The notes under the pieces were generated by a model that saw nothing but the letters and a program-made list of their open reading frames with translations, was not told the DNA's origin and did no database searches. A stretch of 32,070 nucleotides of DNA from Catajapyx aquilonaris (Eukaryota), in assembly GCA_000934665.2 (NCBI GenBank), contig JYFJ02004448.1, positions 1-32,070 of the forward strand, read 5' to 3'. Position numbers and translations under genes: made by a program. Below, piece by piece: positions 3,350 to 31,244 of this stretch; position 1 is the first letter of the stretch, and the number at the start of each line of letters is the position of its first letter.

Positions 3350-3463
3350 ATGACTGTGTCCTGCCACCAAGAAGTTGAGGAAGTGGGCTGCAATAACATC
3401 AGCCCATGCCCTGAGATGCTGGAGAGGGACCACCTACACCATCACCACCAGAAAGAGCTCTGA
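3350..3463 (+). other. Upstream ORF (37 aa) whose TGA overlaps the ATG of SLC35G copy 1 (TGATG)
   Basis: Hand translation gives MTVSCHQEVEEVGCNNISPCPEMLERDHLHHHHQKEL*. TGA is at 3461-3463 and the main ATG at 3463-3465. It lies downstream of a candidate splice acceptor (tttaattcag, 3290). Translation is not demonstrated. Confidence 0.4.
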
Positions 3464-4620
3464 TGACATCCCGTGGGCTCCACCGGGCGCGGCCCAGGGG
3501 CCACCTGTCCCTGGACCTGCAGCGCTTCCCCTCCAGCTCCATGGAAGCTGACCTAGAGCTTGAGCTTCTGGTATCACCAGAGTCCATCCCAGAGGATGAT
3601 GTCCTCAACAATGGATCTGTCGCCCTCCTTGCCTCTGGCCCATCTGCACTTCCCCTTCCCTTGCCTTCATCAAAGAATTCCTGCCCTCACTTGGGCCTCA
3701 TATGTGCTGCCCTTTCCAGCCTCTTCTTCTCATTATCCTCAGCCATAGTCAAAGAATTAGACCATATAAGCCCATTTCAATTGGCAGCATGTCGCTTTGT
3801 GGGTGTATTACTCCCCACAATACCCATACTCTCAGCACAGACTCAGACTTTTGGACAACTATGCCCCAGGGGCCAACGCCTCACCCTTCTCCTGCGCTCA
3901 CTTCTTGGCACTGGCAGCCTTGTAATGCAGTTCTATGCTATACGACACATGCCCTTGGCAGATGCTTCAGTCATAATTTTCAGTGTCCCCGTGTTTGTCG
4001 CCATATTTGCACGCATCTTCTTAAAAGAGCCTTGCGGCATAGCATCAGCAGCGTGCATTGCCTTAACATCAGCCGGAGTGCTCTTGATAGCAAGACCACC
4101 ATTCATATTTGACATCGGGGATGATCCTGACATACCTCGCAGTTGGAAAGGTGCTCTGGTGGCATTGGGTGGGACTGTGCTTGGTGCTAATGTGTACATT
4201 GTGCTTCGGCTTCTGAAAGGAGTCCCATCACCAGTTATCCTCCTCAACTTTGGGTTGGTGGCTGTTGCTCTCACTGTTGTTGCCACCATAATTGCTGAAG
4301 GTGGCATGTGTATGCCTGGATGTGGCCATGACCGCTTGCTGGTGCTGGCTCTAGGGGCATTCAGCTTTGGAGGTCAGATTCTATTAACACTGGCCCTGAA
4401 GTGGGAGCAAGCAGGACCAGTGGCCATAGCCAGGACAGCAGACATCGTGTTTGCATTTGCGTGGCAGGTCCTGTTCTTTGGAGAGGCACCCACTGTGTGG
4501 AGCATCTCGGGGGCAGTGCTAGTAACCTGCTCTGTGTTGGTGACTGGGCTCAGGAAGTGGGTAGCTGCCCTGCCTCCAGATTCAGCAGCAAGGAGGAGGC
4601 TGGGGTGGTTGGACAAGTAG
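3463..4620 (+). CDS. SLC35G1: SLC35G1-like EamA/DMT transporter, copy 1, intronless CDS (385 aa; alternative start at ATG 3541)
   Basis: About 10 hydrophobic segments. Motifs LGLICAALSSLFFSLSSAIVK, MPLADASVIIFSVPVFVAIFARIFLKE, ARPPFIF, PGCGHDRL, EQAGPVAIARTADIVFAFAWQ and RKW match SLC35G1 as recalled (e.g. human ...EKAGPVAIMKTMDVVFAFIFQ...). Confidence 0.92.
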   Translation: MTSRGLHRARPRGHLSLDLQRFPSSSMEADLELELLVSPESIPEDDVLNNGSVALLASGPSALPLPLPSSKNSCPHLGLICAALSSLFFSLSSAIVKELDHISPFQLAACRFVGVLLPTIPILSAQTQTFGQLCPRGQRLTLLLRSLLGTGSLVMQFYAIRHMPLADASVIIFSVPVFVAIFARIFLKEPCGIASAACIALTSAGVLLIARPPFIFDIGDDPDIPRSWKGALVALGGTVLGANVYIVLRLLKGVPSPVILLNFGLVAVALTVVATIIAEGGMCMPGCGHDRLLVLALGAFSFGGQILLTLALKWEQAGPVAIARTADIVFAFAWQVLFFGEAPTVWSISGAVLVTCSVLVTGLRKWVAALPPDSAARRRLGWLDK

Positions 4621-6096
4621 GCATTATTACATTGGAGGAACATAGAGCTGTCTTTGCACCTTTGCATTGCACACTGCCTATTCAATTAGCTTCCACTTCA
4701 AGCTCTAGGGTATGGTTACTGCTTCATACTGAATGCAGCAAGGCAGTAAGTAATATATTCATCAGTGAATAGACATGAATGTGAATATTATTCATGTGAC
4801 CAAGTGATAATGTTTTACGAAAGACAAAGTAAAAAAAAAGAACTTATATATGGAGGAAGGACTTAATGCATATGCCTCCTAGGCAAGCTTTAATTTTGAC
4901 ATCAAGGGTGCACATAATTATGAGAGATATTATGTATTTGAGATGTTCTGCATCAGAATAACGTCCAAATGCAAACAGAGTATTTAACATCTCTGTTTTC
5001 ACCCACTGGTCTGCTGTTGTCATTTTTCCATCGAACTACAGTAATTCAGAATTCATGGATTTGCTGATATTGAAAAACTATGTGCACGTAGACGAGTACA
5101 ACAGGACCACCTATCACAAGAGTTTGTTAAGAGCTTCATAGTTTTTAGTGTCCCTAATATTTTACATGTACTGTACTGTTAAATTGTAAACTCCTAAAAA
5201 TATTCTGCCCTGCTGCAAGATGTATTTACATGCCCAGTGACTGCAACATCAATGCAAAGGTGTTCAAAGTGGTCTTATAGAGCTGAGTATTGTGGATGGG
5301 AAGGCAAACCAATCTTGCATGAAGGGCAGGTCAATCCATGCCTGAACTTGACTGTGATATCTGTTGCTTAAAGTAACCAGTAAGCTGGATGATCATACGG
5401 CACTCACCTTGTGTGCACTCAGCTCTATAATAATAACAATATCATAAAAATGGATATGCATCAAAATGTGAAGGCAGCAACAGTCCTAGTGCGACAATAA
5501 TGACCTCACCTCCACCTTCAAGAGGGAAGAGTAACTTCTAGTGATATATTTTACGAGTTGCAAAAGTAAGCTTCCAATAGTGAGATATGAGAGAAGACAG
5601 TATTAATTTTAATAGCTGTGATGAGTTGTTCCTTGATTTTAGTGAGTCTTAAAGCCATCCTTAACTATCAAAAGTGGCCCTCGATATTATGAACTGTACA
5701 GTATTTATTTCCTGATTGGTTGGAATCCTTAGGATGACTTTTCCATTGTGCAGATTTTACTTAAGACTTTCTTACCTGCACCTGTTGTTGTTAAGATTTG
5801 CACCAGCACAGGTTTCTAGATAATTACTCCTTGAGTCTGATTTAGTATAATATTTGAGTGAACGTGGATCTTTTTAAAAATGCAGTACTATTGTATTAAT
5901 AATGAGCAATAAAATCAGCATTCTCTCAAGGGACATGGAAAATGAGGCCGTTTCAACCCACCAAATCTTTTCCAAGAAGTATATTGCAGTTGTACTGACA
6001 ATGAGTGTCATGATTCAGTAATAAAAGGAAGAGAAATCCAGTTTTCTCAATCTTTAATTTCATGCATCCTGTACTGCTTCCCATATTTATACATAA

Positions 6097-7514: not shown

Positions 7515-7747
7515 CAGCAGTGAGCTAGTGGTTATGCCATGGCCAACCAAGCTGGAAGGTCCAGGATGCCAATCCCATCCTCACACCTTCACTTGGTAGT
7601 GTCCTTTTGTACCTTTCTACTGATGCACATCCTGGTAGAATGTACTTTCTGCTCAGGATCAACTACCCTACAGATTACTATTTATTATCATTGTTGTTGT
7701 TGTTGTTGTCGTTGTTACTATTAGCATTAATAATAATGATGATGATG
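7515..7747 (+). mobile_element. Decayed tRNA-derived SINE with a (TTA/TTG/TAA/TGA)n tail
   Basis: TGAGCTAGTGGTTATGCCATGGCCAACCAAGCTGGAAGG...AATCCC aligns with the head of the SINE at 14802-15091 (TGGTCTAGTGGCTATGTTACTGGCCAGCCAAGCGGGAGG...AATCC). A trinucleotide tail follows at ~7676-7747. Confidence 0.5.
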
Positions 7748-7783
7748 CATTCTGTAGGTAATCAGGTTCTCAGTAATGAAGAC

Positions 7784-8875
7784 ATGGACACCACACCTGA
7801 TGATGTCAGAAATGCCATGCTTACAAGCAGTCTCATCAGTTTGTCATCAGTGGAACCCCTAAACCCAGTGGAACTAATATCTACTTCCAACTCTTCCGCA
7901 AGCAGGCTCGGAAAGCGGCCAAAATATCTTGGAATATTCCTGGCTGTCATTTCAAGCTTCTTTTTTTCTGTGGCCTCAGCCACAGTGAAGACATTGAAAA
8001 TGGTGACCCCATACCAACTGGCCGTGTTCCGATTCATAGGCGTCCTCATGCCAACCATTCCCATCTTAACACTGCAAATATTCTCAATGGCTGAACTCTG
8101 GCCCAAAGGCAAGCGTTTAATGCTCCTCATTCGTTCCATCCTGGGATGCACCAGCTTGATGATGCAGTTCTATGCCATTCAACTCATGCCCCTGGGAGAT
8201 GCCTCAGCCATAATATTCAGTGCCCCAGTGTTTGTAGCCATACTCGCACGGATTGTGCTGAAAGAGCGATTTGGAAGAGCAACCTTTGTTTCCATTGTAC
8301 TTATGTCCACTGGTGTGTTATTGATTGCACGGCCTCCATTCCTGTTTGGGAGCAGCAATGGAAAGGCAGATGCCCATGATGGTACTTGGAAGGTGTCATT
8401 AATAGCACTGTTGGGCACCATCTTGTCAGCTGGGGTATATGTAATGCTTCGCATCCTCAAGGGTGTTCCAGCACCTGTTATCCTACTTAACTTCAGCTCA
8501 GTGGCCATAATTGTGACTTCATTGGCAGCGCAATTTATACCAGAAGAAGGCATGTGCATGCCTTCATGTGTGGAAAACTGGTACCAGCGCCTGGCAATTA
8601 TAGTTCTAGCTGTTGCCAGCTTCATGGGGCAAATATTGCTAACACATGCCTTCAAGTGGGAGCAAGCAGGACCTTTGTCAATCGCAAGAACTACTGACAT
8701 TGTTTTCGCATTTATCTGGCAGTATCTGATTTTTCATGAGACACCACATATCTTGAGCACAGTGGGCGCTGTTTTGATCACCCTTGCTATTATACTCATT
8801 GGACTTAAGAAGTGGGTGGCAGCACTCCCTCCCAATGCACCAGCAAGGCATAGGCTGGGCTGGCTGGATAAATGA
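7784..8875 (+). CDS. SLC35G1: SLC35G1-like EamA/DMT transporter, copy 2, intronless CDS (~363 aa)
   Basis: Co-linear with copy 1 (LGIFLAVISSFFFSVASATVK, MPLGDASAIIFSAPVFVAILARIVLKE, EQAGPLSIARTTDIVFAFIWQ, RLGWLDK*). The start is placed at gacATGg (7784), after an acceptor cattctgtag (7757). The longer ORF from 7607 runs through SINE and microsatellite sequence. Confidence 0.88.
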   Translation: MDTTPDDVRNAMLTSSLISLSSVEPLNPVELISTSNSSASRLGKRPKYLGIFLAVISSFFFSVASATVKTLKMVTPYQLAVFRFIGVLMPTIPILTLQIFSMAELWPKGKRLMLLIRSILGCTSLMMQFYAIQLMPLGDASAIIFSAPVFVAILARIVLKERFGRATFVSIVLMSTGVLLIARPPFLFGSSNGKADAHDGTWKVSLIALLGTILSAGVYVMLRILKGVPAPVILLNFSSVAIIVTSLAAQFIPEEGMCMPSCVENWYQRLAIIVLAVASFMGQILLTHAFKWEQAGPLSIARTTDIVFAFIWQYLIFHETPHILSTVGAVLITLAIILIGLKKWVAALPPNAPARHRLGWLDK

Positions 8876-11206: not shown

Positions 11207-14200
11207 ATGTCTGGTTCCACGGTACATCCAGATGGCCATGGGTCACAGGAGATGGCTACAAACACAACTCACCAGCCCCGCAGCACAAAAAGCAGTCCCT
11301 TATTCCTCCCCTTCCCATCCAGCTCTTTGGACATTCCAGAACTGCTCATTCCAGCCTCTAGAAAAGGTACCATAACTTCAACGGTACGTCCAGATGGCCA
11401 AGGGTCACGGGAGATGTCTACAAACACAATTCAGCAGCCTCGCAGCAACAAAAGCAGTCCCTTATTCGTCCCCTTCCCCTCCAGCTCTTTGGACATTCCA
11501 GAACTGCTCATTCCATCCTCTAGAAAAGGTACCCTAACTCCAACTCTGGTACCAGGGCATGAGAGGGTAGACCAGGATGATTCTCTCCGAGTGGTTCTGG
11601 CTCCATCTGGAAGTCAACCGCTACCCTTGCATCTGGAGTTTGTTTCCCCTACCTCCTCTTTCAACATCCCACCAACTGCAAGAACAAAACGAAGTGTCAA
11701 CAAAAAGTGGAGATACCTAGGACTGGCATGCGGCGTCATTTCCAGCCTATTTTTTTCTTTGGCTTCAGCCATTGTCAAGAAGCTGGAAAATGTCAGTCCC
11801 TTTGGGCTTGCCATTTTCAGGTGCGCAACAGTTTCTTATTTTAATTTCTGTTATGTTTGCACAGGGAGAAAGGCATGTTAAGTATATGGTGGTGTAGTCT
11901 CCTAGTCCCCAGTTCAAGAGGTAATAGTGGGGAAATTATGAACTGTTAACTCCAGCAACTAGTCTTATAAGTAGAAACTTGACATAGGATAGTCACTTGT
12001 TATTTTCTTTACATTGGTTTCTGTATGGCGAACAATTGAGGGGCTGTGTGCATGAAGTGCCCATCCCCCACAAAGTGCATTTTGAGAAATGAAGCTGTAC
12101 CACGGGAAGTCCTTACACCCTGATAGTAATTAATTTTTATATGGCTTCAGGAATCATACAAACTCGCGGAGGTTTTGCATGTCGCTAACGGATGGTAGTA
12201 GCTATAATGCTACACAATAGTGGAAGAATCTCATTTTTGTTCGGTGTGGGGTGGGCCCTTCTTGCACCCACCCTCTCAATTTATAATATATTTTCCTTTT
12301 CCCCCACTTGAACTGGGGACTTCAGAGTAGCAAAAAAAATTATGAACAAATTAACACAATGTAACTAACACCACAAATCTAATGGCATTTGGTCCATCAT
12401 TAACTGCTGGTTGCAGGAATACTTCAAAGAAAATCCACAAGTACTGCATTACATATTTGGGAAAACTCATGTAAATAATAACATCCTGAAAGGAACAGGA
12501 GTTAAAGTAATATCTTCTTCTGCCTTTCAACCTTTAACTGAGTTAGAAAACTGTATAAGATTGTTATTGATTGATTACCCTCTTGCACTTGATAACAGTG
12601 AAGCACAGCAATATATTGATGCTGAGATGTAGCCATAGTGATAACTCCTAGAGATCTAATATACAGTATAAACATAGGGTTTGGTTGAAGCTGGGGCTGT
12701 GGCATCACTGGAATTCTGACAGATGTCATTGGTTCAATTATCTTGATTTTGCTGATACAAGTGCAGGAAGTACCCATTTTACGCTGTTAACTGGTTCCAG
12801 CAAAACGCGCCGTAAAGTGAAACGAGACAAAATTATTATGTAGGTAAATGACAGAGGTTCCAAAATTTCCAAAAATTTTCCATAGGCAGTACTAATATTG
12901 ATGTTTTTAATGACAAATATTGGAAACATTGATTAATGGGAGGTTCCAGGTTGAGGGCCATCAGGTTCTGGGGGCTCCTTTCCTTATTTTGGCAAGAACT
13001 GCAGTATGCGTTGGGTATTCAACAACGGTAGAGTACTTCAGGGAGTGCCGAAACTGGCTGAGACCAACAATACGGTATTGTGTATATTGATAGAAGTATA
13101 GAACCTGCCACAAGGCGGCAGAAAAAACTAAAGAAGCGCTTTTACGGTGTTATCTTCAAATATTTCAAAAAAAATCCATAAAATTATTTCAAATGTAATT
13201 TTAAAGCCAGCGTTAATGTGAAATGGGGTAAAATGGAGCGGCGTAAATTGGTTACTTCTTGTACAATAATACAATAATTTGCTTAAAACCCTTCATTTTC
13301 TACTGGTAAACTTTATCATTATTCCAGAAAATCACACTCACTGTTGATCTTTGTAATTGACTTTCATGTGCTTGAATTCAGATGTCTGGGGGTTGTCCTG
13401 CCTGCATTGCCATTCATTGCCATTCAAGTGGAAACTCCAAGCCATCTCTTCCCAAAGGGTTACCGCCTGTTCCTTCTCCTTCGTGCATCTCTAGGCACAG
13501 GAAGCATAATGCTCCAATTCTACGCCATCCGGAATATGCCCTTACCAGATGCTTCTGTCATCATCTTCAGCGTGCCTGTCTTTGTGACTATCCTAGCACG
13601 AATCTTCCTCAATGAGCCATGTGGACTGGTTACAGTGGTCGGCGTTGTGCTCACCAGTGCTGGCATGCTGCTGATTGCAAAACCCACATTCCTATTTACA
13701 CAGGTAGAGTGAAAATTAAAAATTACCATAATTACAGGATTCCTCAATAAGAGTGAAGTTACAGTTCGGCACAGATCATAATATGTGGTACATAAATTCG
13801 AAGACAACTCGAAAACCGCATTTGTCAATTGCATAATGATTCAGGTTAGTTGATTAGGTGGAGGGGTCCGGAAGACTATTAGTATAAGACTAGCCATGAA
13901 GACTAGCATACCAGTCTTTGTCATGACTAGTACTCCAACTTCATAACAGGAGGTCTCTCAGATAATGTATAATTTTTAATAACCCGACGCTGACTCAGAT
14001 TTTAATGAATTCGCACTACTGCTAATTATTTTATTATAAATATCAACGTAGCGCACTTTTGTACTTTGAAGGCACGAATCTTTGTCCTGCATGCTCGTCA
14101 GGTCAATCATATTTCCATAAAACACTTGAAATTCATCTAAATATAAATTCCGAAATAGTGTGCACAACGTTCATACGAAATGTTATTTCAAAATTTTCTA

Positions 14201-15912
14201 CAGGGACAAAACCTTCTAGATTTATTGAGTTTGGTAAGCTCTGATTTGATTTTTAATAAGATTTCAATGCCAGCCTCACCGGCATTTTGGGACGTGCCAT
14301 AACATACTGATGCTGATCTACTATTCTTGGTGAAAGGATGAAGGAGCAGAAAAAACTGAACACACCGAATGGCAGACTGTGCTGGCAGCTGTAGCAGGCA
14401 CCTTTTTTGGTGCATGTGTGTACATTGCACTCAGGACCCTCCGTGAAGTGAATCCAACCATCATACTCTTCCACTTTGGAAACACTGCCATCATGATTGC
14501 GATCATTGTACTAGTCTTTCTGGATGAACATCATCTCTGCATATTTCCCTGCCAGAGTCATAACCGCTGGCTGATGCTTGCCCTTGGAGTATTCAGCTTT
14601 TTAGGTCAATTCTTGGTCACTCTGGCACTAAGGTGAGTTAGAGCTTAGTGGAGAAAAATATTTCATCTTTAGTCTTTACAAAGTGATCAGAATCCTTGTC
14701 TGAAATCGTCTGAAATGTGTTCTTTTCCTGAGGCTAGGCTCAAAATGTTGGAGGAATGTTCATTTTTATCATAATGTACAGAACCATTTCACATGATCAG
14801 TATGGTTGTTGTTTGTATTACCCCGTGATAGGGCCAGGGGCCCTTTTAGAGGGGGGAAGGGAAGGTTCCCAAGGGAGGGTGCTCTTAAGAGGTCATTTCA
14901 GACCCTCTTAAATACCAGACCTTTTCTCTTGGCCCTGGGCAGAGAAGGGAGTGCAATTCGGCCCAGACATGTTGGGTGAAAAACGGAAAACGACCCGACC
15001 AAGCGAAGGTGACGGGGACGGGGACAGGATTTGAACCCCAAACCTCCCGCTTGGCTGGCCAGTAACATAGCCACTAGACCACCATGGCCCCCACATGATC
15101 AGTTAACTAAAGTCCAGATTTTTAGGAAAATGCCTATTTAGTTCCTTTACAGTTGGGATGGTTTTGTGACGAGATCTATCCATATCATTGATATCATAAG
15201 TGCAGGATGTGGAAATTGTAGGTTTTATAGTGCCTAAAATTGCCTATTTCGTGGTTTTGGGAACTATTTTGCCTATTTTTTGCAATGTATGGCTTTTTGC
15301 ACCTTTTCATGCCTATTTGGCCTTTTTTGGGGATAGTTTTTGAACTGTTTGGAGCAAATTCTGGACTTTCTGGGCCTATTTCAGACCAATTCTTTCAGAG
15401 GCATGTTTTTTTGTTTTTTTTGCAGAGTATTTTTTGCGCTCCTGGAAGGACAAAAATCTTTCAGAAGTAATATTACTTTCACTAATGAAAATCTACTGTA
15501 GAAAAATACTTGGTAACATAATATGCAAATTGAAACGGGCTCTATAAAGTGGTAGCATCCAGAATAATACTTCTTGCACTGTGTGTCAAATTTTGCCGAA
15601 GTTTTGGGATTACTCACATTCACCCCAACAACCTAAGGATATGGCATATTTCAATGATCATACATTAAATTACTTTGCTCTTTCTAAAGGTGGGAGGATG
15701 CAGGACCTGTAGCCATTTCAAGAACAGCAGACATTGGATTTGCTTTCATCTGGCAAATCTTATTCTTCAAGCCAATGCCATCTTGGACTAGTGCTACAGG
15801 AGCACTCCTGATTACACTCTCTGTCATCCTCACAGGGCTCAGGACATGGGTATCTACACTGCCACCTGGAGCACCAGCACTCAAGAGGCTTGGCTGGCTT
15901 ACAAACTGTTGA
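11207..15912 (+). CDS. SLC35G1: SLC35G1-like EamA/DMT transporter, copy 3, four coding exons (~484 aa)
   Basis: Exons 11207-11820, 13382-13703, 14337-14632 and 15690-15912. All introns are GT-AG with phases 2, 0, 2. Splicing keeps the frame: ...LAIFR|CLGVVLP...FLFTQ|DEGAEKTEHTEWQTVLAAVAG...VTLALR|WEDAGPVAISRTADIGFAFIWQ...KRLGWLTNC*. Confidence 0.85.
11219..11542 (+). repeat. In-frame 2 x 162-bp tandem duplication in the N-terminal tail of copy 3
   Basis: Units 11219-11380 and 11381-11542 each encode TV.PDG.GS.EM.TNT..QPRS.KSSPLF.PFPSSSLDIPELLIP.SRKGT.T. Confidence 0.92.
11904..12321. mobile_element. TIR element with a second nested inverted-repeat element, in intron 1 of copy 3
   Basis: Perfect 15-bp TIR AGTCCCCAGTTCAAG (11904-11918) / CTTGAACTGGGGACT (12307-12321). 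An inner imperfect pair lies at ~12034-12070 (AATTGAGGGGCTGTGTGCATGAAGTGCCCATCCCC) and ~12248-12281. Confidence 0.65.
12761..13264. mobile_element. Non-autonomous TIR DNA element in intron 1 of copy 3
   Basis: GTGCAGGAAGTACCCATTTTACGCTG (12761-12786) matches the reverse complement of the right end (GTACAAGAAGTAACCAATTTACGCCG) at 21/26. No clear TSD. Confidence 0.55.
14802..15091 (-). mobile_element. tRNA-derived SINE (~290 bp) in intron 3 of copy 3
   Basis: Minus strand shows an A box TGGTCTAGTGG, a B box GGTTCAAATCC and a (CAA)n tail. A 12-bp TSD CACATGATCAGT lies at 14790-14801 and 15092-15103. Confidence 0.85.
15109..15369. mobile_element. Unclassified short TIR element with internal TGCCTATTT repeats
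   Basis: AAAGTCCAGATTTT (15109-15122) vs AAATTCTGGACTTT (15356-15369) match at 13/14 as inverted repeats. Several TGCCTA(TTT) motifs lie inside. Confidence 0.45.
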
Positions 15913-19476: not shown

Positions 19477-20454
19477 CTGAAAGTTGTCAATTTGTTAATA
19501 CAACAACAACAACAACAAAAACAACAGCAACAGTATGATGATGATGATAATTCAAATAAAACATTATTTTTCTAAGTGACATATTTATGACAAGAGTTGC
19601 ATGCAGCATGCTCTTATGACACATGGTGGAGAGAGAACCTAGCAAATAATGGACTGACTGCAATGACACTAACATGACTGGTCTTCCTTGCCAGCCTCGC
19701 CCAAGCATCACCTGACTAAAACACAGGTTGAAGATTATTACTTGTCCACCGCACACTGGGTACTAGGATACCAAAATTCTGGTATACTCATATACTTCGT
19801 ACTTCATACTTTGTATTCTGTATACTCGTAAGTTTCATGCTACTGGCATTTCCATTCATTCTTGAGCTGATCCTTGCTTCATTTCCCATGTCCCTCTATT
19901 TCTATTTATCTAGAATTTCTCCAACAATGTCCTCCTTAAATGATAAGCATACCATTCACCAAATGCTCCATTGCAAGGTAATAAAACAAGGTAAACACTG
20001 CACTATAGGCAAGGATTCTGACACTGTAATAAAAACTGAAATGGTTATGAGGTGGGTGTGAAGCACCACAGATATCCAAATTCAAGTTGGATTTTCTTGT
20101 AAGATGGCATCCTTTTTCTAATTTTGTGAATGAATGAATGAAACCTATTGTAAAAGGATTCAGGACCTTGTTTAACCTGTGAGTAAATCATGGTAAAAGA
20201 GCATGTAAGGGTGTTTATAGTTATTGCTAATATTGCCCAAAGTAGTTATTTTTGCACAGCTTATTGCGCCTCAATGCAGGTGCTCTATTATGAAAAAACT
20301 GCTATATTTGACCACCTGGAAATAATTGGGCACCTGGGTCGCAACAATAAGCTCCAAATAAATTAAAGCTCCAAGCAAAATTTCCTATAACTAAAGTGAC
20401 CCACATACTTGGAACACCTTGTATAATTATTCCTTCATAATACAATCGGCAATA

Positions 20455-22310
20455 TCAAACCTGAAAATGCCTCTTTAGAGAATCCTCTAGCACCATCTTT
20501 GGTAATGGATCTTCTTCACATTGGGTATAGGCAAGGACTTCATCTTTAAAATCCTCTATGAAATCAGACAAAATGGTAGCAATGCTTCTGTCCTGTCTTG
20601 CAGCTGATTTCAGTTCCACCAGAAAGTACTCCTGTACAGCTTCTGAGTCAGTTGGATTAAAATTCAGGTCTGAAACATCTGCAGAATTCTCAGCAGGGAT
20701 CAAATTCCCAACAAGCATTGGAAGGCCACATACAAGCCCAAATAGTCTTCTTCGGAAGAAGTCACCTTGAAATTCTTCCAGAGTTAATCCTATTTGACCA
20801 TTTTTTGCTAGGCACTTATTAAGGCTGCCAAAATAGTGATGCAGCACAACGTGAAGGTGCTCCTTACGGAACTGAAGGCTAGTACTTGTGTAAAGAAAGT
20901 AAAGCAGATCTGTGGTTAGCGAGGCCCAGCGGGTTGCTTGAAAGTCCACCAATGTTGCCATCACAGGTAACTTGCACCCATCTCCAGATTCTGAGTAGAG
21001 AAACATTGTATTGTTGCTCCAGCAATCTCCGTGACATATGACGTTAAATGGTTCCTGTAAAAGTGAAATCTTGTATAAGGACAGTGGCTTTGTTCCATAT
21101 CAGATATATCTCACATCTGATAAGGTATATAATTTCCTTAACCCCAGGTCTGATTTTCATATGGCCTCTTTCAGAAAAAAACACCACATATGATGGGATC
21201 AACAATGAAAAAAAAAATCACTTTGTTTTATGTGCAATCGTCTTGGAAGGACTTTCATATCGGCTGATCGGATTTGTGAGGGGTAGGGGTATCATGTACC
21301 AATGTAACCCATGACCTAACTTTTCTTCCCGGCAGATACAAATCTATTTTCAGCAGAACAGGCCTCTTTTAGCAGATACATGATACAAGCCTAGAAGAGT
21401 AGGTAAAAGTGCTGCGTCAGCCAAAATGAAAGTCTAGCCATAGTCTCTAATCCAAAACTCAGTTCATTACTACACATCTCCATAATGCATACTGTATAAT
21501 TATAATTCTCTGTATTGTGAAACAGCTCTGCTAAGTACAAGGATTGATACAAACCTCAGGAGTGACCATTTCTGCATAAACATCCAATATTTTAGGTTGT
21601 ATTCTTCTCAGTATTTCCAATGCCTTTGGATATCCACCAGTCTCCTCTAAGAACTTGTCAATAACTTCGAACAGGGTCTGTTGGAAAAAACCAAGTCCTG
21701 GCTCGTCTTTGGTACCCATGGTGTCTTTCAGCACTGGATATCTGTTGAGCATGACTTTGCTAGGATTGTCCCACTGCTTCTTGACAACAAATGAAGCTGC
21801 ATGCAATTTGGATAAAGCTTCCATCACCTGTTTGACGTGGGTCAGACCTTGACCTGACCCAGAACGAGGGTACATCTGATAGCCCTTCGAGACCACTAAA
21901 TTCTCCAGAACCACAATTTCAGGCGAAGCATGGTAGCAAACAGGAAGAAAGTCCAGATCCAAGTCACCTTCATATTTGGCACATGATGCCCTTAGAAGTG
22001 GGAGGAAGACATTGAAGAATGCAGCCTCCTTTTCATACAGGAGACTCTTTTTGATCAACTCAGCATAATCTCCAGAAAGGAATCCCTTCTTGACAAAGAC
22101 AGGTAAGGTCTCTTTCTTTCTCCCAGAGGTTGGTCCACTTTCAAAAGTGACCTGCATATATTCCACCTTGCTCATGAAATTCCCTCCTTTCTTTGGTGAA
22201 ATGGTGGCCATCACTTGTTCTACTTTGAGAGATTCATCTTCAAAGTACTTTCGAAAGGAATCCTCAAGATCCGTTTGGCTAAGATCAGCTATTTCCACTG
22301 GATTTGCCAT
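20455..22310 (-). CDS. Ecdysteroid kinase-like (EcKL/CHK, DUF227-type) protein, gene B (~451 aa)
   Basis: Exons 22310-21555 and 21054-20455, with a phase-0 intron at the same position as in gene A (...MVTPE|EPFNVICHGDCWSNNTMFLY...). Motifs GGNFMS, YEKEAAFF, LENL...GY, LHAASF, HGDCWSNN and VDFQ...DLLYFLYTS. An acceptor ccttttcag lies 7 nt before the ATG. Confidence 0.88.
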
Positions 22311-23279
22311 GACTGTCCTGAAAAGGATAAAAGTTCACTTGTAAATTATAGTACTGTAAAGGGGTGAATCCACAGTGCAACTGCTACACTGGTACTTTCA
22401 AACATGCGATAATGTTACGCCCCTTTCTGACGTGGCCCTGATAAGATATACCTACATGATGAGCCCTCTTTAGAAAATCACCTGTACTACGTATATTGTG
22501 TTGTTCATTGCATAACAGATATGTGGCCTTGTTGTATTCATCAAGTTGGCCTTGCCTATTTCATCACGTAGAACACACTCAGAGCACAGGAGTGATAAGA
22601 AAGAACAGTCCTCTGCACAGCCTTGAAGCTGATAACCTAAAAAAATATGCTCCAGTTACACATTATCCCACTATCTTTGGCTCAGTTACTGTATTAGGGC
22701 CACAACAACGGTCAGCTGTAGTCACAGTACATATCACCTTCACACTGCTCAGAATAATTTTGTCATAAAGTAAGTGTAATCCTACTTCACTTTCGCAAGA
22801 TGTGTGTCAAACTTATGAATTACTTCTATCAGTATCATTCAAACTACCCTTTACACTTTGGAGTCAACATTGTCTAAGTTTCCAAACAATATCTAGTGAC
22901 ACTATTGCTCTTCAAAGTAAATGTCCATGATAAATAATACATTACAAACATCATTAAAAAATCAAAATTAATGAAAATTTGTGTCAACCTTGTGCATCTC
23001 ATGAAGCCAAAATGACTGGAAGGAATCAGGCATATGACAGTGAATTTCACTTTTGTTTGCATTATATTGAATTGAAAGTGCCTGTTATGGGTGTCATCTT
23101 GTGCCTTCCTTTTCATCTATGACTGTATACTAGTGTCTCTTTCACAAAAAAGCCACAATTTGTAGCTGTTCCAAGTAAAATTGCAACTTGGGTCCATGTG
23201 ATAAACATGTCAAAAGATTCCCCAAATTAAGGTCTTCCATTAACACACCAGGTCCTACCATAGGGAAATAGCTCACTAA

Positions 23280-23308
<29 letters not shown>
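23280..23308. repeat. (TTG)n microsatellite
   Basis: About 9-10 consecutive TTG/GTT units read directly. Confidence 0.85.
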
Positions 23309-23310
<2 letters not shown>

Positions 23311-25298
23311 TGACAAGAACAGGTTACAAACAACAATCAAGTTCATTTCTTAATCTAGTGGGCCAATGCAATGCAGGTTTTGTAATCCCTGTCCCAATTG
23401 ACCATCACCCTGACCTCATAATGTGCTGTTTTTATGCTTTTCATGCCTTGTCAAACTGAAAATGAAAAAAAGAGGCCACAACTATAGTCTTATTTGATCA
23501 GAAGTTTACTGGATATCAAGATCAATTTTTGCAAAATTTTAGTACCAGGGTAGCATTTAAAATTTAATTTAAAAATTGTCTTCAAGATTTAAGCATGATT
23601 ATCGATTGCCGCCTGAAACAGAATTATGACCACTGTATGTATCGTGGAGTCACCTCAAGGTGTGTACAGGGTGATCAAAATGTTAAAGTGGTGAACAGTG
23701 TAATAGACAATGTGAGTTGACGAGGAAAACATAGTGTGGAGGTAACATTTACTGGTCACCAATGAAAATTCAATGAAAATTATGGCATATGATAATGAAG
23801 ATTTCTTTTAAAATTCCATGATTATGAATATGCAATGAAGTTCATATCAAGAATGTGGTATTCTGAGATGCCCCACCATCAATCATTTTTAAAACCTACA
23901 AGCATATACCGTACACAGCCTTTTCAGTGCACAACAAGTAGCTGTTGGGTGCTGCTGCGCAAAGTGCCGCTGCCAGCCGCTGCTTTCAGAGTTTCAGACC
24001 TTGCTTCTACAAGTCATTTCCCTACAACTTTCCACAATTTGATCTCCGAAAAACACTCCGTGTAAGTGGCCCTTAAAAATTGTCAATTAATCTAGCAAAA
24101 TAATGTCATTGCTCAATATGCAGTATCAACTTATAGCTACATAAAAAAGATGGAATATCACTGTATATTTAAAAACAATGTTTTGACACCCCAAGACCTA
24201 CAGACAAGTCACTCTACACAAATTGGCACATAATAAGTGAAAGACATTACTAGTCCAATTTCAGTGGGTTTGAAATGCTGACACCACTTAGTAGTATTTT
24301 TAGTGCCTTTACTGCCTGAATAAGTCCATTTAGTCCTACACTGGCATGCTGCAGAGTGCAGAGTACTATAATACGCATTAGCACAGCATCATGCACAGCA
24401 TGGACCTCCATTACTGTTGGCAACCCTGGCTTCAAAATGGCGGCCTCCGGTAGAACATAACCTTGACACACTGACCGTGAGTTTAGCAGCCAGTGAGATT
24501 CATGGCAAAGCTGCGAATTGGGTGGGTGGGTGGGTGGGTGGGTACGGATGGGCCTTACACCCTCCATAGATCGTTGTGAACGGGGCAGAAAGGGACTGTT
24601 GCTTCGTACAAAAATTGTCAGTAGCAAGGTTCTTATTGGAATAACCTTGCACCTCACCTTGCACCTTCTTGTTGAAAATAATGTATTGTGTCAGTAGTAG
24701 ACGCTGACCATTTCGAAACTGATTAGCTCTTTTTTTTTAACGAAGTGTTGTAATGTCTGTTACATCTCGTATGGCACATTTGTAACTAACTGTAAGTGAT
24801 CATTGGGGATGTGGTAGTAATGTGATGGATCTGTAGGGAATACGAACTCCCCCAGACCGAATAGTACTGTACCACATATGCCAGGTTGGTAGAGGCCAAG
24901 GTTATCTGGGATAGGGGAGGGTAAGAGGGAAATGGAGAGTTTTGTAACATGGGAGGAAATTGGAGAACTCCTACAAAACTAGGGAGAACACAGTGAACCT
25001 CTCTAACCACTGATCCAGGGTATTCACAGAGGATTAATACGAGCATGTAGCTTGTTCTGGAATCAGTCACATAACATTTACGCACATGAATTTTGTAAAG
25101 ACTCGTCAAAATCCTCTACTGGGAAAGTTGGGTCTGTGATTCCCAAAATTTTCATGCTGTGTGAAAAATAAGTAAAATTAAACCATAATAAATCCTAACC
25201 TTTTATACTTATTGAAGACAACAACATTAGGCTAATATTATTGTTTACAGAGCAAGTACCTGACAAAATTGATCTCAGAAACCTTTTTGCATGCTCAT

Positions 25299-25648
25299 AA
25301 TAATTATTATAATAATAATTGTGGGTAATGCTTTCACCCCCAAGCGGGGGTATATCGCATGAACCTTTATTTATTTATTTCTTCAATTTTCTCAACTTCG
25401 GTGCAAGGAATCAAGGATATTGGGTAAGGATAGGGATTTTCGGGGAGGGGACACGAGTGCAAGTGCAATGTCGTTAAACGGGTCATGTGCAGTCCCCCAG
25501 GAGGTTAGGTTGCCAGACACCTCCTTGGTGCAGGTCAGCGACCCTCCTGACGCAGGTGAAAGGAAAGTTCCCCAGGCGGGGATCGAACCTGGGGCCTTTC
25601 ACACAGCAAGCCGAGACGTTACCATCTCTGCCACCACACCTCCCCCCT
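25299..25648 (-). mobile_element. tRNA-derived SINE (~350 bp), second family
   Basis: Minus strand shows an A box TGGCAGAGATGG, a B box GGTTCGATCCC and an (ATT)n-like tail. A perfect 16-bp TSD CTTTTTGCATGCTCAT lies at 25283-25298 and 25649-25664. Confidence 0.88.
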
Positions 25649-25874: not shown

Positions 25875-28832
25875 ATGGATATGTGGCAGAAGTCAGTGTG
25901 CGAAGGGGAAGTGGAGGCACCCACTCCTGCCGCCATTCCACCAGCAAAACCGAAGAATGGCAGGAGCCACTACTTGGGCCTGACCTGTGCTGTCCTCTCA
26001 AGCCTCCTCTTCTCTATCTCTTCAGCCATGGTCAAGCATCTACGTCACATCAGCCCATTCCAGTTGACAGCGTTCCGCTTCATAGGTGTCCTGCTCCCTT
26101 CTCTTCCCATCCTGATTTGTAAGGCCACAAAGCCCACTTCTCAGTACCTCTTTCCAGAAGGTGCAAGAGTTCTGCTGATTGCCCGAGCTGTTGCAGGATC
26201 CATCAGCATGATGCTAAAGTACTATGCCTTCCAGCATATGCCATTAGGGGATGCTTCAGTCATCATGTTCAGTGTACCTGTATTTGTGGCCATCCTTGCC
26301 AGGATATTCCTCAAGGAGATGTTTGGCATTGTCAATGTTGCCTGCATATTCCTCACCACTGCAGGATTGATGTTCATTGCCAGGCCAGACACATTATTCA
26401 CAGCAGAGGTATGGATAGGAATAAGCTCTCAAACTGTAGCCTAATACAAAATGCAGATGCTTATTTTTAATTCAGTGGCTGTTGAATAGGGCAGTGGACT
26501 TAACATTTTAGATTCCTAGCACTTTCCAGAAGTAATGAAGTCCAAGTAAAGTAGTGGGTAATTCCACCGTAACTGATGCAACACCTGGAAAGGGATTCAT
26601 GATTAAACTTATTGCCATATTTTTAGAATTTTGCAACAGTAACTTGAATGGACTCTGTAAAATTAACTGACGCAACATGAAAAAGACAAGCTCTTTGNCA
26701 AGCTCTTTGGGGGGGGGGGGGGGTACTGTGGTGATGTGAAACCCTGTGTGAGCTGAATATATTTAGAAGTACTACTGTATTACAATTGAAGACCTCAGGA
26801 GAAAAGTGATCAAGGTCCACCTGAGGTGAAACTGAGATAATCACATTTTAAATTTCGAAGGCCCGTAAGGTTTCATTGTAAATCCCACTTTCAGGGCCTT
26901 CCATAGTGACCTATGATCATTATTCCACAACCACAACCAAACCATCATATTCTACACTAGGGAGAGTATCTTCGGAGATATGTAACTCATTTTTGACAAA
27001 AAAGTGGACCTTCATCTTTCTTCCCCCGAGGTCTTCAATTGATGTGATCTACACTCGAGGAGCAATTTTGTGATTATTTTAGACCACGCATATTAATGTT
27101 CATGTTTTAAGGAGAAATTTGTATTAACGTAACTGATGCAACAAACAGTCAAAAGTCGCGTCAGTTACGACTATTATATCTTGACTTTTCCATGGTTCTG
27201 CTGCTATCTGGTAGCAGAACATTGCTACACCTACTTCATCTGACATAACGACATAACGATCTGCTTTCAATAAGTCATCTACCACCCCACAATACGCGAC
27301 TTCATTTTTGGATCATGTCTCTGTTCCCGTGGAATTACCCTAGTAAGAACAGTTGAGGAAGTGCAATGCTGGATGCTTCTGATGACAATTTATGAATGTG
27401 CTTTTTGTTTTGATATCTTGTTTGTATTAGCTTGATTCTTAGGGAATCCTCCTTCAAAACGTCCGTATTAAGATAATTATTTTCATATTCGGATCCAGTT
27501 CCAAGAAGAAATTGAAGATCAATATTAAATGGTAGATGATTACATTACAAGATCCATTACCAAATAAAGAATTCTACTAGTAAAGTAGGGAATCGTATGA
27601 TTCTTCCTTTGCTGAATACATGAAGATTCTTAGTGAAAAAGCTGTTTGGCAGCATCAATTTAAAATATGACAAGAGGCATAGTGGGAGCTGAGATGCAGA
27701 CATGCAAACAAGAGCATTGCCCTCTTAGGAGACAACACCATTTACACATCAATAATAAGAAACTGTAGCTTTTCATGCTGATTCTCCCAATATGAACAAA
27801 AGCTTTCATCTAGGCTCTAGGGTCTAGGGAGTGTCAAATATCAACTGCATGTATTGCACGAGTCATTTCAGTTAATATTTCTGCTCCTTTGAATAGCTCC
27901 CTCTGACCATTTTCATATAAAAATGTGCAGGTTGCAATATTTCAATCCTTATTTATCTCACATCCCACACACCCACCCACCCACACACACTACCTCTTTT
28001 GTCATTCTATATTTTATCTTGTCTAATTGACTCGTATGTAGGCCTACTATATCACTCAAAAAAATGGAGACAATTCAGCATTAGGTTTCAATTCAAAATC
28101 GTCTTCATCTTTTTGAGCGATATAGTATCTTTTCACCAAAAATTTTGATCTGTCCAGCAAATCTGGCATCCAACCTATATTCATTCTCCATTTTTGTCGA
28201 ATCTCTTCATGATAGACGACTTCCTGAAGTGTGCACATACTGACATATCAAAAATTTATTTGTGGTTTAGATGTTTTTAAATGCAAGAAGCCAAGTTTTA
28301 ATAAAATATCTTACATTTATTTGGACCAATCCCCTAGTCAAGTGGAAGGACTGCTGATTGGGGTGGCATCATTGCTGCCATCCTAGGCACACTCCTAGCT
28401 GCTGTCATCTACATCTTGCTCAGGAAACTTAAAGGAGTCGATCCTGAAGTGATCCTTCTCCACCTGGCTAGTGTCGCTCTTGTAATCACCAACACAACAG
28501 CAGTGGTGGAAGGCCATCTCTGCATGCCTGCTTGTGGTTGGGAGCGACTGATGGTTGCAGCCATAGGTGTGCTAAGCTTTGGGGGCCAATACTCACTTAC
28601 CCTCGCCCTGAAGCTGGAGGAGGCAGGACCTGTGTCCATTGCACGGACATCAGACATTGCCTTTGCCTTCGCTTGGCAGTGGCTCATATTTGGGGAGTTG
28701 CCCACTGTGTGGAGTCTTGTAGGAGCCACACTGGTTATCTCTTCTGTTCTGGCTGTTGGCCTCAGAAAGTGGGTCATGGGGCTTTCCCCACATTCTCATA
28801 TTAGGCGCAAGTTGAACTGGCTTACAAAGTGA
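25875..28832 (+). CDS. SLC35G1: SLC35G1-like EamA/DMT transporter, copy 4, two coding exons (~342 aa)
   Basis: Exons 25875-26408 and 28338-28832, joined by a phase-0 GT-AG intron (...ARPDTLFTAE|SSGRTADWGGIIAAILGTLL...). Motifs MPLGDASVIMFSVPVFVAILARIFLKE, EEAGPVSIARTSDIAFAFAWQ and RRKLNWLTK*. Confidence 0.87.
26556..27340. mobile_element. Non-autonomous DNA transposon with 4-bp TSD (Sola2-like termini) in the intron of copy 4
   Basis: Perfect 12-bp TIR GGGTAATTCCAC (26556-26567) / GTGGAATTACCC (27329-27340), with TAGT on both flanks. The motif (CG)TAACTGAYGC recurs at ~26568, ~26664 and ~27128, and inverted at ~27155. GRG termini with a 4-bp TSD fit Sola2; the classification is an inference. 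Confidence 0.7.
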
Positions 28833-29287: not shown

Positions 29288-30095
29288 ATTTTAAAGTTGT
29301 GCTGCAACACAATTATTTTTATAGACTTGAGATAAATGTTTAAATTAATGTTGGTTTATGTTATGGTCCTCAACGATTGGTTTTTTTCAATCGTTGGATG
29401 AACAGTTAATGTATGTGTTTGTACATATTGAGAGGTAAATATTGTCATGTTAATCACAATTCCAACTATCTTCTGATTGGTTTCAATGATTCTGTATGAC
29501 CAATCATTGTATGGTTGCTAAATGTTGATACTATAAACAAATACCTATACATTGTTGCACCCAAGTGCAGGAAAAAACATAATGGTTGCCTTTATCGTTC
29601 ATGAAACAACTACAGTTGCCAGTTAGGTGAGTAGAATCCTGCTAGGCAAGTTTCATTGTTCAATCTCCTTTAAGCAATCCCTCCGTATAGATTAAAATGA
29701 AGTTTATTCATTAGTGGAATATCTGTGATATATAGAATCAGTAGGAATAAGTGCACATAGCATTATTTGTGGAATGTTAATTGGTGTGAGTCACCTCAAA
29801 TCCTGTGGTGTAACATCCATGTCAAACTTAATTCAAATGTGCTGATATATAGTTTCAGAAAAGTATATGTCCAAGTCTGAAGTGTACTACTAATGTATAA
29901 TTGGACAACAGAAACAGGGTATAAAGTGAAAATATGAGAATAAACTACTATTTAATTAAAATTAATCTCCTAAAAATGTTGATAACCCTCATCCTGCAGT
30001 TTCTCATCTCAACAAAGGAGTCAGACACGAGTTGATGTTCAGGCTATGAGCTTGATACAAGAAGTGAATTACTGCACCTACAACTTACGCTTACC

Positions 30096-31244
30096 ATGCA
30101 CAAAATTATGGCACTTGGTTGCCATACAACCAATGATGGGGAGCAAAATTCAACCGAGTCTTCCTACACATCCGTCCACAGTTGCACTGAGCCAACAGAA
30201 ACAGAGGGATACCTTGCCCCTGATTATGAACTGCAATCTGTATCAACAGTGTCTACCTTGGAATCCTCAATCAGCACACCACCTTTAAAGCATGGGAAGA
30301 ACAGAAGGCTCGGACTTGCATGTGCCCTTGTATCAGCCTTCCTCTTCTCCATAACATCATTACTTGTCAAGATGTTGGGGCATATCTGCCCATTCCAGCT
30401 TACAACCATGCGCTTTGTGGGAATTGTTCTACCCATCCTCCCAATTCTGAGCTGCACCATCAAGAGTAAGGGCCTTAAAAAGTACCTATTTCCTCAAAAA
30501 ATGCTGCCATTCCTGTTTATCCGTGCCTTAATAGGTAGCATTGCCATGATGCTCAGATATTATGCCATCCAAAAGCTACCACTGTCAGATGTATCTGTTA
30601 TACTGTTCAGTGCACCAATATTTGTGGCCCTTTTTGCCAGGATTTTTTTGAATGAGATGTGTGGAGTGATCCTGACAGCCAGTGTTGCTCTCACCACAGC
30701 GGGACTGGTTATAATTGTGAGGTCCACACTTCTGAATGCCTCAGATGCAGATCCCTTGGACTGGACTGGACTTGTGGCTGCATTCCTAAGCACCCTGTTG
30801 GGTTCTGGGTTATTTGCAGTGCTGAGAAAGCTCCAAAATGTACCAGTGGTGGTGGTCTTCTTCCACTTTGGTGTCATTGCACTAATTGTCACTGGTTCAA
30901 CAACTCTTGTGGTACAAGACTGCCTTTGCATGCCCATGTGCTGGGATGACCGTTTGCTAGTTCTGAGCATAAGTCTGTCTGGATTTGGAGGACAAGCCCT
31001 CCTTATAATGTCTTTGAAATTGAAAAAATCTGGCCCAGTATCTATACTGCTCACTACAGATGTCATTTTTGCTTTCATGTGGCAGCACTTATTCTTTAAA
31101 GACAACACCCCCATTACCACATCTTCTATTGTGGGAGCTGTTCTAGTCATACTCTCAGGGGTGTTGATTGGTTTGCAGAAATGGGTGCTTGCACTGCCTG
31201 TAGAATCACTTACACGTAAAAGATTCAGCTGGCTCCTTGAGTAA
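30096..31244 (+). CDS. SLC35G1: SLC35G1-like EamA/DMT transporter, copy 5, intronless CDS (382 aa)
   Basis: Motifs LGLACALVSAFLFSITSLLVK, LPLSDVSVILFSAPIFVALFARIFLNE, CMPMCWDDRL, KKSGPVSILLTTDVIFAFMWQ and RKRFSWLLE*. A candidate acceptor (ctcatcctgcag, 29999) lies upstream. Confidence 0.9.
   Translation: MHKIMALGCHTTNDGEQNSTESSYTSVHSCTEPTETEGYLAPDYELQSVSTVSTLESSISTPPLKHGKNRRLGLACALVSAFLFSITSLLVKMLGHICPFQLTTMRFVGIVLPILPILSCTIKSKGLKKYLFPQKMLPFLFIRALIGSIAMMLRYYAIQKLPLSDVSVILFSAPIFVALFARIFLNEMCGVILTASVALTTAGLVIIVRSTLLNASDADPLDWTGLVAAFLSTLLGSGLFAVLRKLQNVPVVVVFFHFGVIALIVTGSTTLVVQDCLCMPMCWDDRLLVLSISLSGFGGQALLIMSLKLKKSGPVSILLTTDVIFAFMWQHLFFKDNTPITTSSIVGAVLVILSGVLIGLQKWVLALPVESLTRKRFSWLLE

Follow-up and report, generated by a model that had tools for sequence, protein, structure and literature searches.

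A tandem array of five SLC35G1-like carrier genes with an inverted two-domain EcKL kinase gene in Catajapyx aquilonaris

The locus analysed here, in a genome of tetraconatan type (hexapod or crustacean), consists of five SLC35G1-like carrier genes in tandem (S1 to S5) and one inverted, two-domain EcKL kinase gene (EcKL-BA) located between S3 and S4. Kinase and carriers most likely came to lie close together as neighbours from two families that expanded independently, each in tandem. An evolved pathway cluster is improbable, and the kinase and the carriers are presumably not functionally coupled. The junction between the two kinase halves was resolved to the base from a spliced contig, and the carriers were characterized by domain searches, phylogeny and, for one of them, a structural model.

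Layout and gene content of the locus

The window is the whole 32,070-nt stretch of contig JYFJ02004448.1 that was analysed. Pfam searches of its stop-to-stop ORFs gave a 3-2-2 order, i.e. three SLC35G1-like genes on the + strand, two EcKL units on the - strand and two more SLC35G1-like genes on the + strand. The EamA domain (PF00892) was found in the five + strand genes and the EcKL domain (PF02958) in four - strand exons, which make up the two EcKL units, B and A. None of the modelled S1-S5, EcKL-A and EcKL-B sequences has an internal stop or a frameshift. Five SLC35G and two EcKL units in this order, with exons free of such lesions, were what the initial annotation had described; ORFs, Pfam and tblastn agree with the former and the spliced gene models with the latter. 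Its view that both families expanded at one locus also holds: the five carriers form one clade (support 100/100, see below), and EcKL-A and EcKL-B pair as sisters with a support of 100 (FastTree, 122 rows).

The transporter paralogues are 40-57% identical in protein sequence and EcKL-A is 43% identical to EcKL-B; DNA repeats common to paralogues were looked for within the window and none was found. With proteins that far apart and no common DNA repeats, an assembly artefact was rejected as the source of the paralogues. On sequence grounds, S1-S5 and the two kinase units are taken to be old duplicates.

Contigs from a public run, X1, displayed canonical joints at three modelled introns (18229-18831, 21055-21554 and 26409-28337). 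A fourth canonical joint skips 19477-20460 and brings the EcKL-B and EcKL-A halves into one frame. Since the two halves are spliced together, the locus comprises at most six transcription units, as against seven independent genes.

A two-domain kinase gene

The features of the kinase gene are as follows.

17689..22310, - strand: EcKL-BA, single transcription unit; 844-aa ORF with two EcKL domains
22310-21555, 21054-20461, 19476-18832 and 18228-17689, - strand: exons of EcKL-BA (splice models and X1 joints)
22310-20455, - strand: EcKL-B unit (splice model, ATG at 22310)
19476-17689, - strand: EcKL-A unit (splice model)
19477..20460, - strand: linking intron from EcKL-B to EcKL-A, 984 nt (one X1 contig)

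The EcKL exons scored 55.9, 73.5, 87.2 and 98.3 bits, all above the Pfam cut-off of 22. The X1 joints at the introns of the gene all read CT..AC as written on the + strand, and the 3' UTR extends to at least 17029. The EcKL-B/EcKL-A junction comes from one contig of one run (record 2 of X1, a run of unrecorded library type); this contig matches 324 and 215 letters on the two sides of the linking intron with 0 mismatches, and the junction reads CAG/GTTTGA ... TTTCAG/GAC. The EcKL-B and EcKL-A halves are thus one two-domain gene, on one message. Of the 'two EcKL kinases' of the initial annotation, the two intact EcKL units stand but the count does not: because both units form one gene, spliced into one message with one two-domain ORF, two apparent kinase genes are corrected to one.

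The fused 844-aa ORF contains two full EcKL domains, matching profile positions 8-416 and 11-414. The second gains positions 11-28, which are absent from EcKL-A alone: EcKL-A lacks an independent N-terminus, and the tail of the last exon of EcKL-B encodes the first residues of this half. That tail (LEDSLKRHFQ/DPALQV, with the slash at the junction) aligns with the N-terminus of EcKL-B itself (LEDSFRKYFEDESLKV). As read from the translations, EcKL-B carries the motifs CHGDCWSNN and LVDFQ, and EcKL-A the motifs CHGDAGKNN and LIDFQ. They correspond to the HxDxxxxN loop and the DFQ metal-binding motif, which we take to be the catalytic motifs of the kinase-like fold. Both domains look catalytically complete and are predicted to be active.

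In the single-domain frame, the last sense codon begins with the donor GT of the linking intron and is directly followed by a TGA stop. When the intron is retained, the frame ends at the stop at 20457-20455. With the donor placed in the codon just ahead of this stop, one gene could yield both one- and two-domain products: removal of the 984-nt intron would join the halves into the 844-aa protein, and leaving it in would give EcKL-B as a 451-aa single-domain enzyme.

The same arrangement could be read as two separate, overlapping genes, although we hold this to be unlikely. EcKL-A would start within the last exon of EcKL-B, and EcKL-B would end at its own stop; translation of EcKL-A from an internal Met (KMVLEDS) would give a 406-aa single-domain kinase, and the overlap would involve 5' UTR only. 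The X1 contig covers just 324 nt upstream of the donor, all in the last exon of EcKL-B, and a separate EcKL-A transcript could therefore begin there; moreover, there is an in-frame ATG 12 codons upstream of the donor, the EcKL-B stop codon lies 3 nt past it, and the 406-aa product is near the usual EcKL size (reported median, 414 aa). However, the frame runs without interruption from the EcKL-B domain into EcKL-A, and the domain envelopes are only about 10 residues apart. The homology of the EcKL-B tail to an N-terminus also reaches, by eye, upstream of the internal Met (the computed alignment starts at LEDS), and the ancestral start would be expected upstream of that Met. Furthermore, many relatives are two-domain EcKLs whose linkers are just as short, clean two-domain proteins making up 35 of the best 150 library matches. 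The reading as a single two-domain gene is therefore preferred to that of two overlapping genes.

EcKL-BA probably arose when one EcKL unit was duplicated in tandem and the spacer was then lost, so that the first kinase domain ends directly at the N-terminus of the second. The nearest relatives of the pair are one collembolan, one copepod and two unnamed proteins, all uncharacterised and at a long tree distance.

Five carriers of the SLC35G1 type

The carrier genes, all on the + strand, are listed below.

3463..4620, + strand: S1, single exon, SLC35G1-like, 385 aa; second in-frame ATG at 3541
7529..8875, + strand: ORF of S2, single exon, SLC35G1-like paralogue; start codon uncertain
11207..15912, + strand: S3, four exons, SLC35G1-like paralogue, 484 aa; predicted introns
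11207-11820, 13382-13703, 14337-14632 and 15690-15912, + strand: exons of S3 (predicted splice model)
25875..28832, + strand: S4, two exons (25875-26408 and 28338-28832); 342 aa from the ATG at 25875
30096..31244, + strand: S5, single exon, 382 aa, the most divergent SLC35G1-like paralogue

Each polypeptide has two EamA repeats, as detected by Pfam for S1, S2, S4 and S5 and by Pfam plus tblastn for S3. Two EamA stretches were found in S1 (E 8e-24), S2 (E 1e-22) and S5 (E 3e-19), and one match per exon in S4. For S3, the first repeat is the Pfam match in exon 2 and the second was given by tblastn to the references (residues 187-350), tblastn covering all four exons. The spliced model of S3 was obtained by ranking GT..AG combinations by alignment score; its N-terminal tail bears an in-frame tandem duplication of 162 bp (11215-11538), the copies of which are 91% identical. 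The start of S2 is uncertain because the open frame 7529-8875 contains several candidate ATGs (7640, 7736-7745, 7784 and 7817); the reference tblastn alignment spans 7853-8872. For S4, an X1 transcript contig covers 25599-29143, and its joint, which skips 1929 nt with GT..AG ends, agrees with the splice model.

The best 120 database matches were all EamA proteins, and the named ones were nearly all 'solute carrier family 35 member G1' (automatic annotations). S1 is 52-59% identical to arthropod proteins named SLC35G1 by NCBI; S5 gave 13 matches, the best one 39% identical, and so has no close relative in the database. In the phylogeny (IQ-TREE, 36 rows), S1-S5 form one clade inside arthropod SLC35G1 (support 100/100), where SLC35G1 proteins of crustaceans and insects surround them and a spider homologue is the outgroup. 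The branch of S1 is short (0.32), those of S2-S5 range from 1.6 to 5.1, the longest being that of S5 (5.13), and the long branches make the order within S2-S5 unsure. Of the 141 family-conserved columns defined with 120 reference proteins, S1 keeps 129, S2 106, S3 108, S4 105 and S5 87. As judged from these comparisons, the five transporters are a single lineage-specific tandem expansion, in which S1 is the conserved copy and S2-S5 are fast-evolving. S1 probably retained the ancestral carrier role, which would be organic-anion transport if the citrate data from mammals can be transferred.

The fold was checked on S5 alone, the most divergent of the five copies. Its AlphaFold2 model (pLDDT 78.6, pTM 0.76) has a predicted 10-helix DMT fold. 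Foldseek returned 23 matches at E <= 0.001 and all among the matches listed were DMT carriers: SLC35B1, Vrg4, the CMP-sialic acid transporter (CST), TPT, 5i20 and LicB were found, and the target-normalised TM values ranged from 0.62 to 0.76 for the first five. S2-S5 are intact and still look like working 10-helix carriers.

Kinase and carriers: juxtaposition or module

The kinase gene and S4 are separated by the following region.

22311..25598, no strand: divergent spacer, about 3.3 kb long, of the head-to-head pair EcKL-BA and S4, from the EcKL-B ATG to the first base of the S4 transcript contig

No Pfam domain was found in the ORFs of this interval, which is the only place of the locus where shared regulation of kinase and transporter is structurally plausible.

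One can imagine that the locus encodes the phosphorylate-and-transport module suggested in the initial annotation. EcKL would phosphorylate a steroid, a xenobiotic or another metabolite, S2-S5 would carry the anionic product out or sequester it, and the genes would be kept together and co-regulated. We consider this improbable. It would fit with the nesting of the kinase gene within the transporter array and with the head-to-head arrangement of EcKL-BA and S4, both of which are present in run X1, as is compatible with shared regulation. Also, S2-S5 are strongly diverged from the conserved S1 while remaining intact, as expected for new substrate ranges. By analogy, DMT-fold relatives move phosphorylated or anionic organic molecules (ATP/ADP, nucleotide sugars, triose phosphate, citrate); since the usual cargo of DMT/SLC35 carriers is a phosphate-bearing or polyanionic organic molecule, transport of a phospho-conjugate is chemically plausible. 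In addition, our literature search found no paper pairing SLC35G1 with 'insect', so the idea has not already been dismissed in print.

Several observations go against a module. So many pairs of families could lie side by side that singling out one EcKL gene next to five carriers, at one locus, is a post-hoc choice. SLC35G1 homologues are present where EcKLs are absent, for instance in a spider, EcKLs being reported as limited to Tetraconata. The compared EcKL and SLC35G1 proteins are on different contigs in all six species for which contig sizes were listed for both a SLC35G1 homologue and a compared EcKL (Oratosquilla, Hetaerina, Ephemera, Cherax, Periplaneta and Cylas), a weak test because one or a few EcKLs per species were taken from large families, so that a neighbouring EcKL may still lie beside SLC35G1. 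Finally, a scan for ecdysone-response elements gave 1 match versus 1.2 expected. More doubtful still is the specific proposal that EcKL-BA and S2-S5 constitute a lineage-specific conjugate-and-export unit, in which a steroid or xenobiotic would be phosphorylated by one or both kinase domains and the diverged carriers would take the anionic phospho-conjugate across a membrane, with regulation shared at least between EcKL-BA and the head-to-head S4. Juxtaposition of two tandem expansions is the reading that we retain.

Comparison with known systems and significance

EcKLs have been linked to the phosphorylation of ecdysteroids and xenobiotics, and have been proposed to act in detoxification by 'phosphorylation', as phase-II enzymes, in insects and crustaceans; mammalian SLC35G1 is reported to be a chloride-sensitive citrate transporter and a STIM1 partner. 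The background given for the two families in the initial annotation agrees with these reports, to the extent of the source excerpts. The locus resembles the EcKL family (PF02958) in its EcKL domain, in the HGDxxxxN and DFQ motifs of both halves and in being made of tandem duplicates. Two-domain models, rare but already reported among insect EcKL genes (33, or 0.8%, in the consulted part of the work of Scanlan and co-workers, bioRxiv 10.1101/2023.06.29.546846), have the same architecture as EcKL-BA. The differences from known EcKLs are that the B/A pair has no close relative and that its junction is resolved to the base. EcKL-BA thereby shows, to the base, how a gene for a two-domain EcKL can be put together.

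With SLC35G1 (TMEM20/POST) of the SLC35/DMT superfamily, the carriers share the two EamA repeats and, in the S5 model, the 10-helix DMT fold. Among the best 120 database matches, the named arthropod species appear with essentially one copy each, whereas the present locus has five in tandem, four of them strongly diverged; the citrate and STIM1 data are known for the human protein, a distant orthologue. The array is also reminiscent of arthropod detoxification arrays (P450, GST, UGT, ABC, EcKL) in having expanded in tandem within one lineage, where one copy stayed conserved and several others evolve fast. It departs from them in that SLC35G-type carriers are missing from the detoxification families named in the EcKL literature, as far as the excerpts of it extend, and in that enzyme and carrier are known here as an adjacency only.

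To conclude, this locus presents an expansion to five copies of a carrier that other arthropods have in low copy number and that is unstudied in the group. The excerpts of the EcKL literature name no carrier for EcKL products. If the conjugate-and-export unit were real, insect and crustacean 'detoxification by phosphorylation' would gain the first transporter partner put forward for it, and the SLC35G1-like genes of arthropods their first function; with a genuine kinase-carrier unit, the carrier of EcKL products would become open to experiment.

Gene content of the window

Stop-to-stop frames were read with the standard code, and 13 of them were scanned with Pfam. Carrier domains of the EamA type (PF00892) were detected in five genes on the + strand and EcKL (PF02958) in four exons on the - strand, the latter with 55.9-98.3 bits versus a cut-off of 22. 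Gene models were derived from tblastn with seven arthropod SLC35G1 queries (HSPs listed for two of the seven) and from splice-site enumeration scored against references. The SLC35G1-like carrier genes were numbered S1 to S5 in window order, and the two kinase units named EcKL-A and EcKL-B.

Gene models in the window
3463-4620, + strand: S1, one exon, 385 aa
7529-8875 (frame), + strand: S2, one exon; start uncertain, with ATGs at 7640, 7736-7745, 7784 and 7817
11207-11820 / 13382-13703 / 14337-14632 / 15690-15912, + strand: S3, four exons
19476-18832 / 18228-17689, - strand: EcKL-A, two exons
22310-21555 / 21054-20455, - strand: EcKL-B, two exons
25875-26408 / 28338-28832, + strand: S4, two exons
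30096-31244, + strand: S5, one exon

The order, i.e. three genes on the + strand, two on the - strand and two on the + strand, is exactly that of the initial annotation, whose modelled exons were also said to lack internal stops; none was found in any of the seven models. No Pfam domain was detected in 12 intergenic ORFs of 78-146 aa, and neither Rfam families nor tRNAs were found in the window. A single N is present at 26698, inside the S4 intron. An inverted repeat at 1344-1413 / 1578-1647 (70-nt arms, 94% complementary, 164 nt between them) has the appearance of a small MITE-type or foldback element.

The two kinase units are joined by splicing

Transcript evidence came from X1, the only public run containing the region (library kind unrecorded; 0.38 of sampled words present), the contigs of which were compared with the 20-kb stretch 11200-31199; S1 and S2 lie outside it. 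Four joints with canonical intron ends were obtained. Three of them coincide with the modelled introns 18229-18831, 21055-21554 and 26409-28337, which indicates that X1 carries spliced, RNA-derived sequence; that the spliced sequence consists of processed DNA copies is a formal alternative. The fourth was unexpected: one contig places 324 letters on 20783-20460 and 215 on 19475-19261, with 0 mismatches, and skips 984 nt that begin with GT and end with AG when read on the - strand.

The - strand reads ...CAT TTT CAG|GTT TGA at 20469-20455 and ...TTTCAG|GAC CCA GCC at the 19476 acceptor, so that the splice removes from the EcKL-B frame its final codon plus the stop and enters EcKL-A in phase 0. 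The resulting ORF of 844 aa contains two full domains (profile positions 8-416 and 11-414) with about 10 residues between them. Taken by itself, EcKL-A has an exon that supplies no start codon and is closely preceded by an in-frame stop, and it matches the local EcKL profile only from position 29. The HGDxxxxN loop and the DFQ motif can be read in the translations of both halves. On the evidence of the fourth X1 joint, carried by one contig, we concluded that what had been taken for two kinase genes is a single gene, spliced and with two domains (hereafter EcKL-BA). The 'two EcKL kinases' of the initial annotation are thus correct as two intact units and incorrect as separate genes. If the 984-nt intron were retained, a single-domain enzyme of 451 aa is predicted.

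The X1 junction contig extends only 324 nt upstream of the donor, which would also suit a separate EcKL-A message starting inside the last exon of EcKL-B, from a Met located 12 codons before the donor; we regard such a message as rather doubtful and retain the two-domain gene. Separate upstream start exons for EcKL-A (within 19900-20100, - strand) had been considered, either an ATG directly before GTATGC or a short 'MVCLSFKEDI' exon; both were dropped because X1 joins the 19476 acceptor to a donor in the last exon of EcKL-B.

The tail of EcKL-B, LEDSLKRHFQ followed by DPALQVKSV, aligns with EcKL-B's own N-terminus (LEDSFRKYFEDESLKVEQV), and the homologous C-terminal end of EcKL-B aligns with the true C-terminus of EcKL-A. 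The first coding segment of the second unit is therefore now inside the last exon of the first, the spacer and the ancestral start of the second unit being gone. EcKL-A and EcKL-B are 43% identical in protein and pair as sisters with support 100 in a FastTree tree of 122 domain rows, in which all supports are purely local, SH-like values.

EcKL-B exon 1 drew no match in a word-index search, a sensitivity limit, and a full HMMER search was used instead. The EcKL relatives came from insect and malacostracan species and from one collembolan and one copepod. A phylogenomic study reports EcKLs only from Hexapoda and Crustacea, and counts 33 models (0.8%) with two domains (bioRxiv 10.1101/2023.06.29.546846). 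Together with the insect and malacostracan relatives of S1, this assigns the window to a tetraconatan arthropod. Among our best 150 EcKL matches, 35 were clean two-domain proteins of 760-1000 aa. Read by eye in the FastTree tree, the two domains were direct sisters in at least 19 of these 35 proteins, and one clade of eight two-domain proteins showed separate clades for the first and second domains. Two-domain EcKLs are therefore already known, the layout being rare but described; the window kinase belongs to the EcKL family, in an unplaced lineage, and has this layout. No solved structure was related by sequence to exon 1 or exon 2 of EcKL-B.

An old array of SLC35G1-like carriers

The best database relatives of S1 were insect and malacostracan proteins annotated SLC35G1 (52-59% identical); no solved structure was related to it by sequence. 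Pairwise protein identity among S1-S5 was 40-57%, and no DNA-level repeats were found in common, which implies that the carrier duplications are old and rules out an assembly artefact or haplotype duplication. In an IQ-TREE analysis of 36 rows (the five window copies, 24 named arthropod SLC35G1, six unnamed relatives, with a spider sequence as outgroup), S1-S5 formed one clade (100/100). Taken with the sister pairing of the two kinase units at support 100, this agrees with the proposal that both families expanded at one locus. S4 and S5 were paired at 87/92; the branch of S1 was short (0.32) and those of S2, S3, S4 and S5 measured 3.05, 2.69, 1.62 and 5.13, so that the inner order is unsure, as long branches meet (an IQ-TREE warning). 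By domain the five proteins are members of the DMT/EamA superfamily, and by annotation and tree position they fall in the arthropod SLC35G1 group. Mammalian SLC35G1 is reported to transport citrate in a chloride-sensitive manner and to partner with STIM1.

Across 120 reference proteins, 141 columns were conserved at 95% or more; of these, S1 kept 129, S2 106, S3 108, S4 105 and S5 87. With S5 as query no more than 13 proteins were retrieved, the top one at 39% identity, and within the limits of this word-index search no S5-type subfamily is visible elsewhere. An AlphaFold2 model of S5 built on a 39-row alignment (pLDDT 78.6, residues 1-64 disordered) matched DMT carriers, i.e. SLC35B1, Vrg4, the CMP-sialic acid transporter, the triose-phosphate translocator and 5i20. 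Judged from this model, it is plausible that S5, the most divergent copy, is still a working carrier.

A few oddities were noted along the array. In S3, an in-frame 162-bp tandem duplication (11215-11538, 2.0 copies, 91% identical) doubles a 54-aa Ser/Pro-rich segment of the N-terminal, non-membrane tail; it is far younger than the carrier gene duplications. Intron 2 of S3 (13704-14336) and the single S4 intron (26409-28337) are both in phase 0, and their positions differ by no more than two alignment columns, inside the central loop that connects the EamA halves; S1, S2 and S5 are without coding introns. Either an old intron common to the copies was lost three times, or introns were gained in parallel.

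Others came from the X1 contigs. Cover was absent or almost absent on S3 exons 1-3 and S5, which says nothing on expression. Just upstream of the S4 start, at approximately 25480-25700, the summed contig depth was very high (518-736 at 25567-25568; bin mean of 162 versus at most 26 elsewhere); this stretch, without tRNA, Rfam match or Pfam domain, is probably a dispersed repeat transcribed at many places. A 611-nt contig at 29284-29894, between S4 and S5 and with no long ORF, may belong to S5 as its 5' UTR or leader; alternatively, it may be a non-coding transcript, either extended or independent.

Are kinase and carriers coupled?

The initial annotation had proposed a co-regulated module in which the EcKLs phosphorylate a small molecule and the carriers move the product. 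In the collection searched, no paper was found containing both SLC35G1 and 'insect'; SLC35G1 and EcKL led to separate literatures there, and no title or abstract joined them among the matches listed. Several features would suit such coupling: the kinase gene is nested within the carrier array, EcKL-BA lies head to head with S4 (about 3.3 kb from the EcKL-B start at 22310 to the first S4 transcript base detected, at 25599), both are present in X1, and the DMT fold family typically moves phosphate-bearing or polyanionic organic substrates. Against these stand observations that are adverse or neutral. SLC35G1 homologues are found in a spider, a group from which EcKLs are not reported, and the ancestral role of the carriers is therefore independent of EcKLs. 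In all six species with contig sizes listed for both (Oratosquilla, Hetaerina, Ephemera, Cherax, Periplaneta and Cylas), the sizes differ and the SLC35G1 homologue and the compared EcKL are thus on different contigs, a weak point given the many EcKLs per genome. A scan for the ecdysone-response-element consensus, one mismatch allowed, gave 1 match versus 1.2 expected; this match falls in the high-depth stretch at about 25480-25700. Overall, the results neither strongly favour nor oppose coupling, and we consider a functional link between the EcKL kinase and the SLC35G-like carriers quite unlikely. What holds of the earlier interpretation is the two family expansions, which are real.
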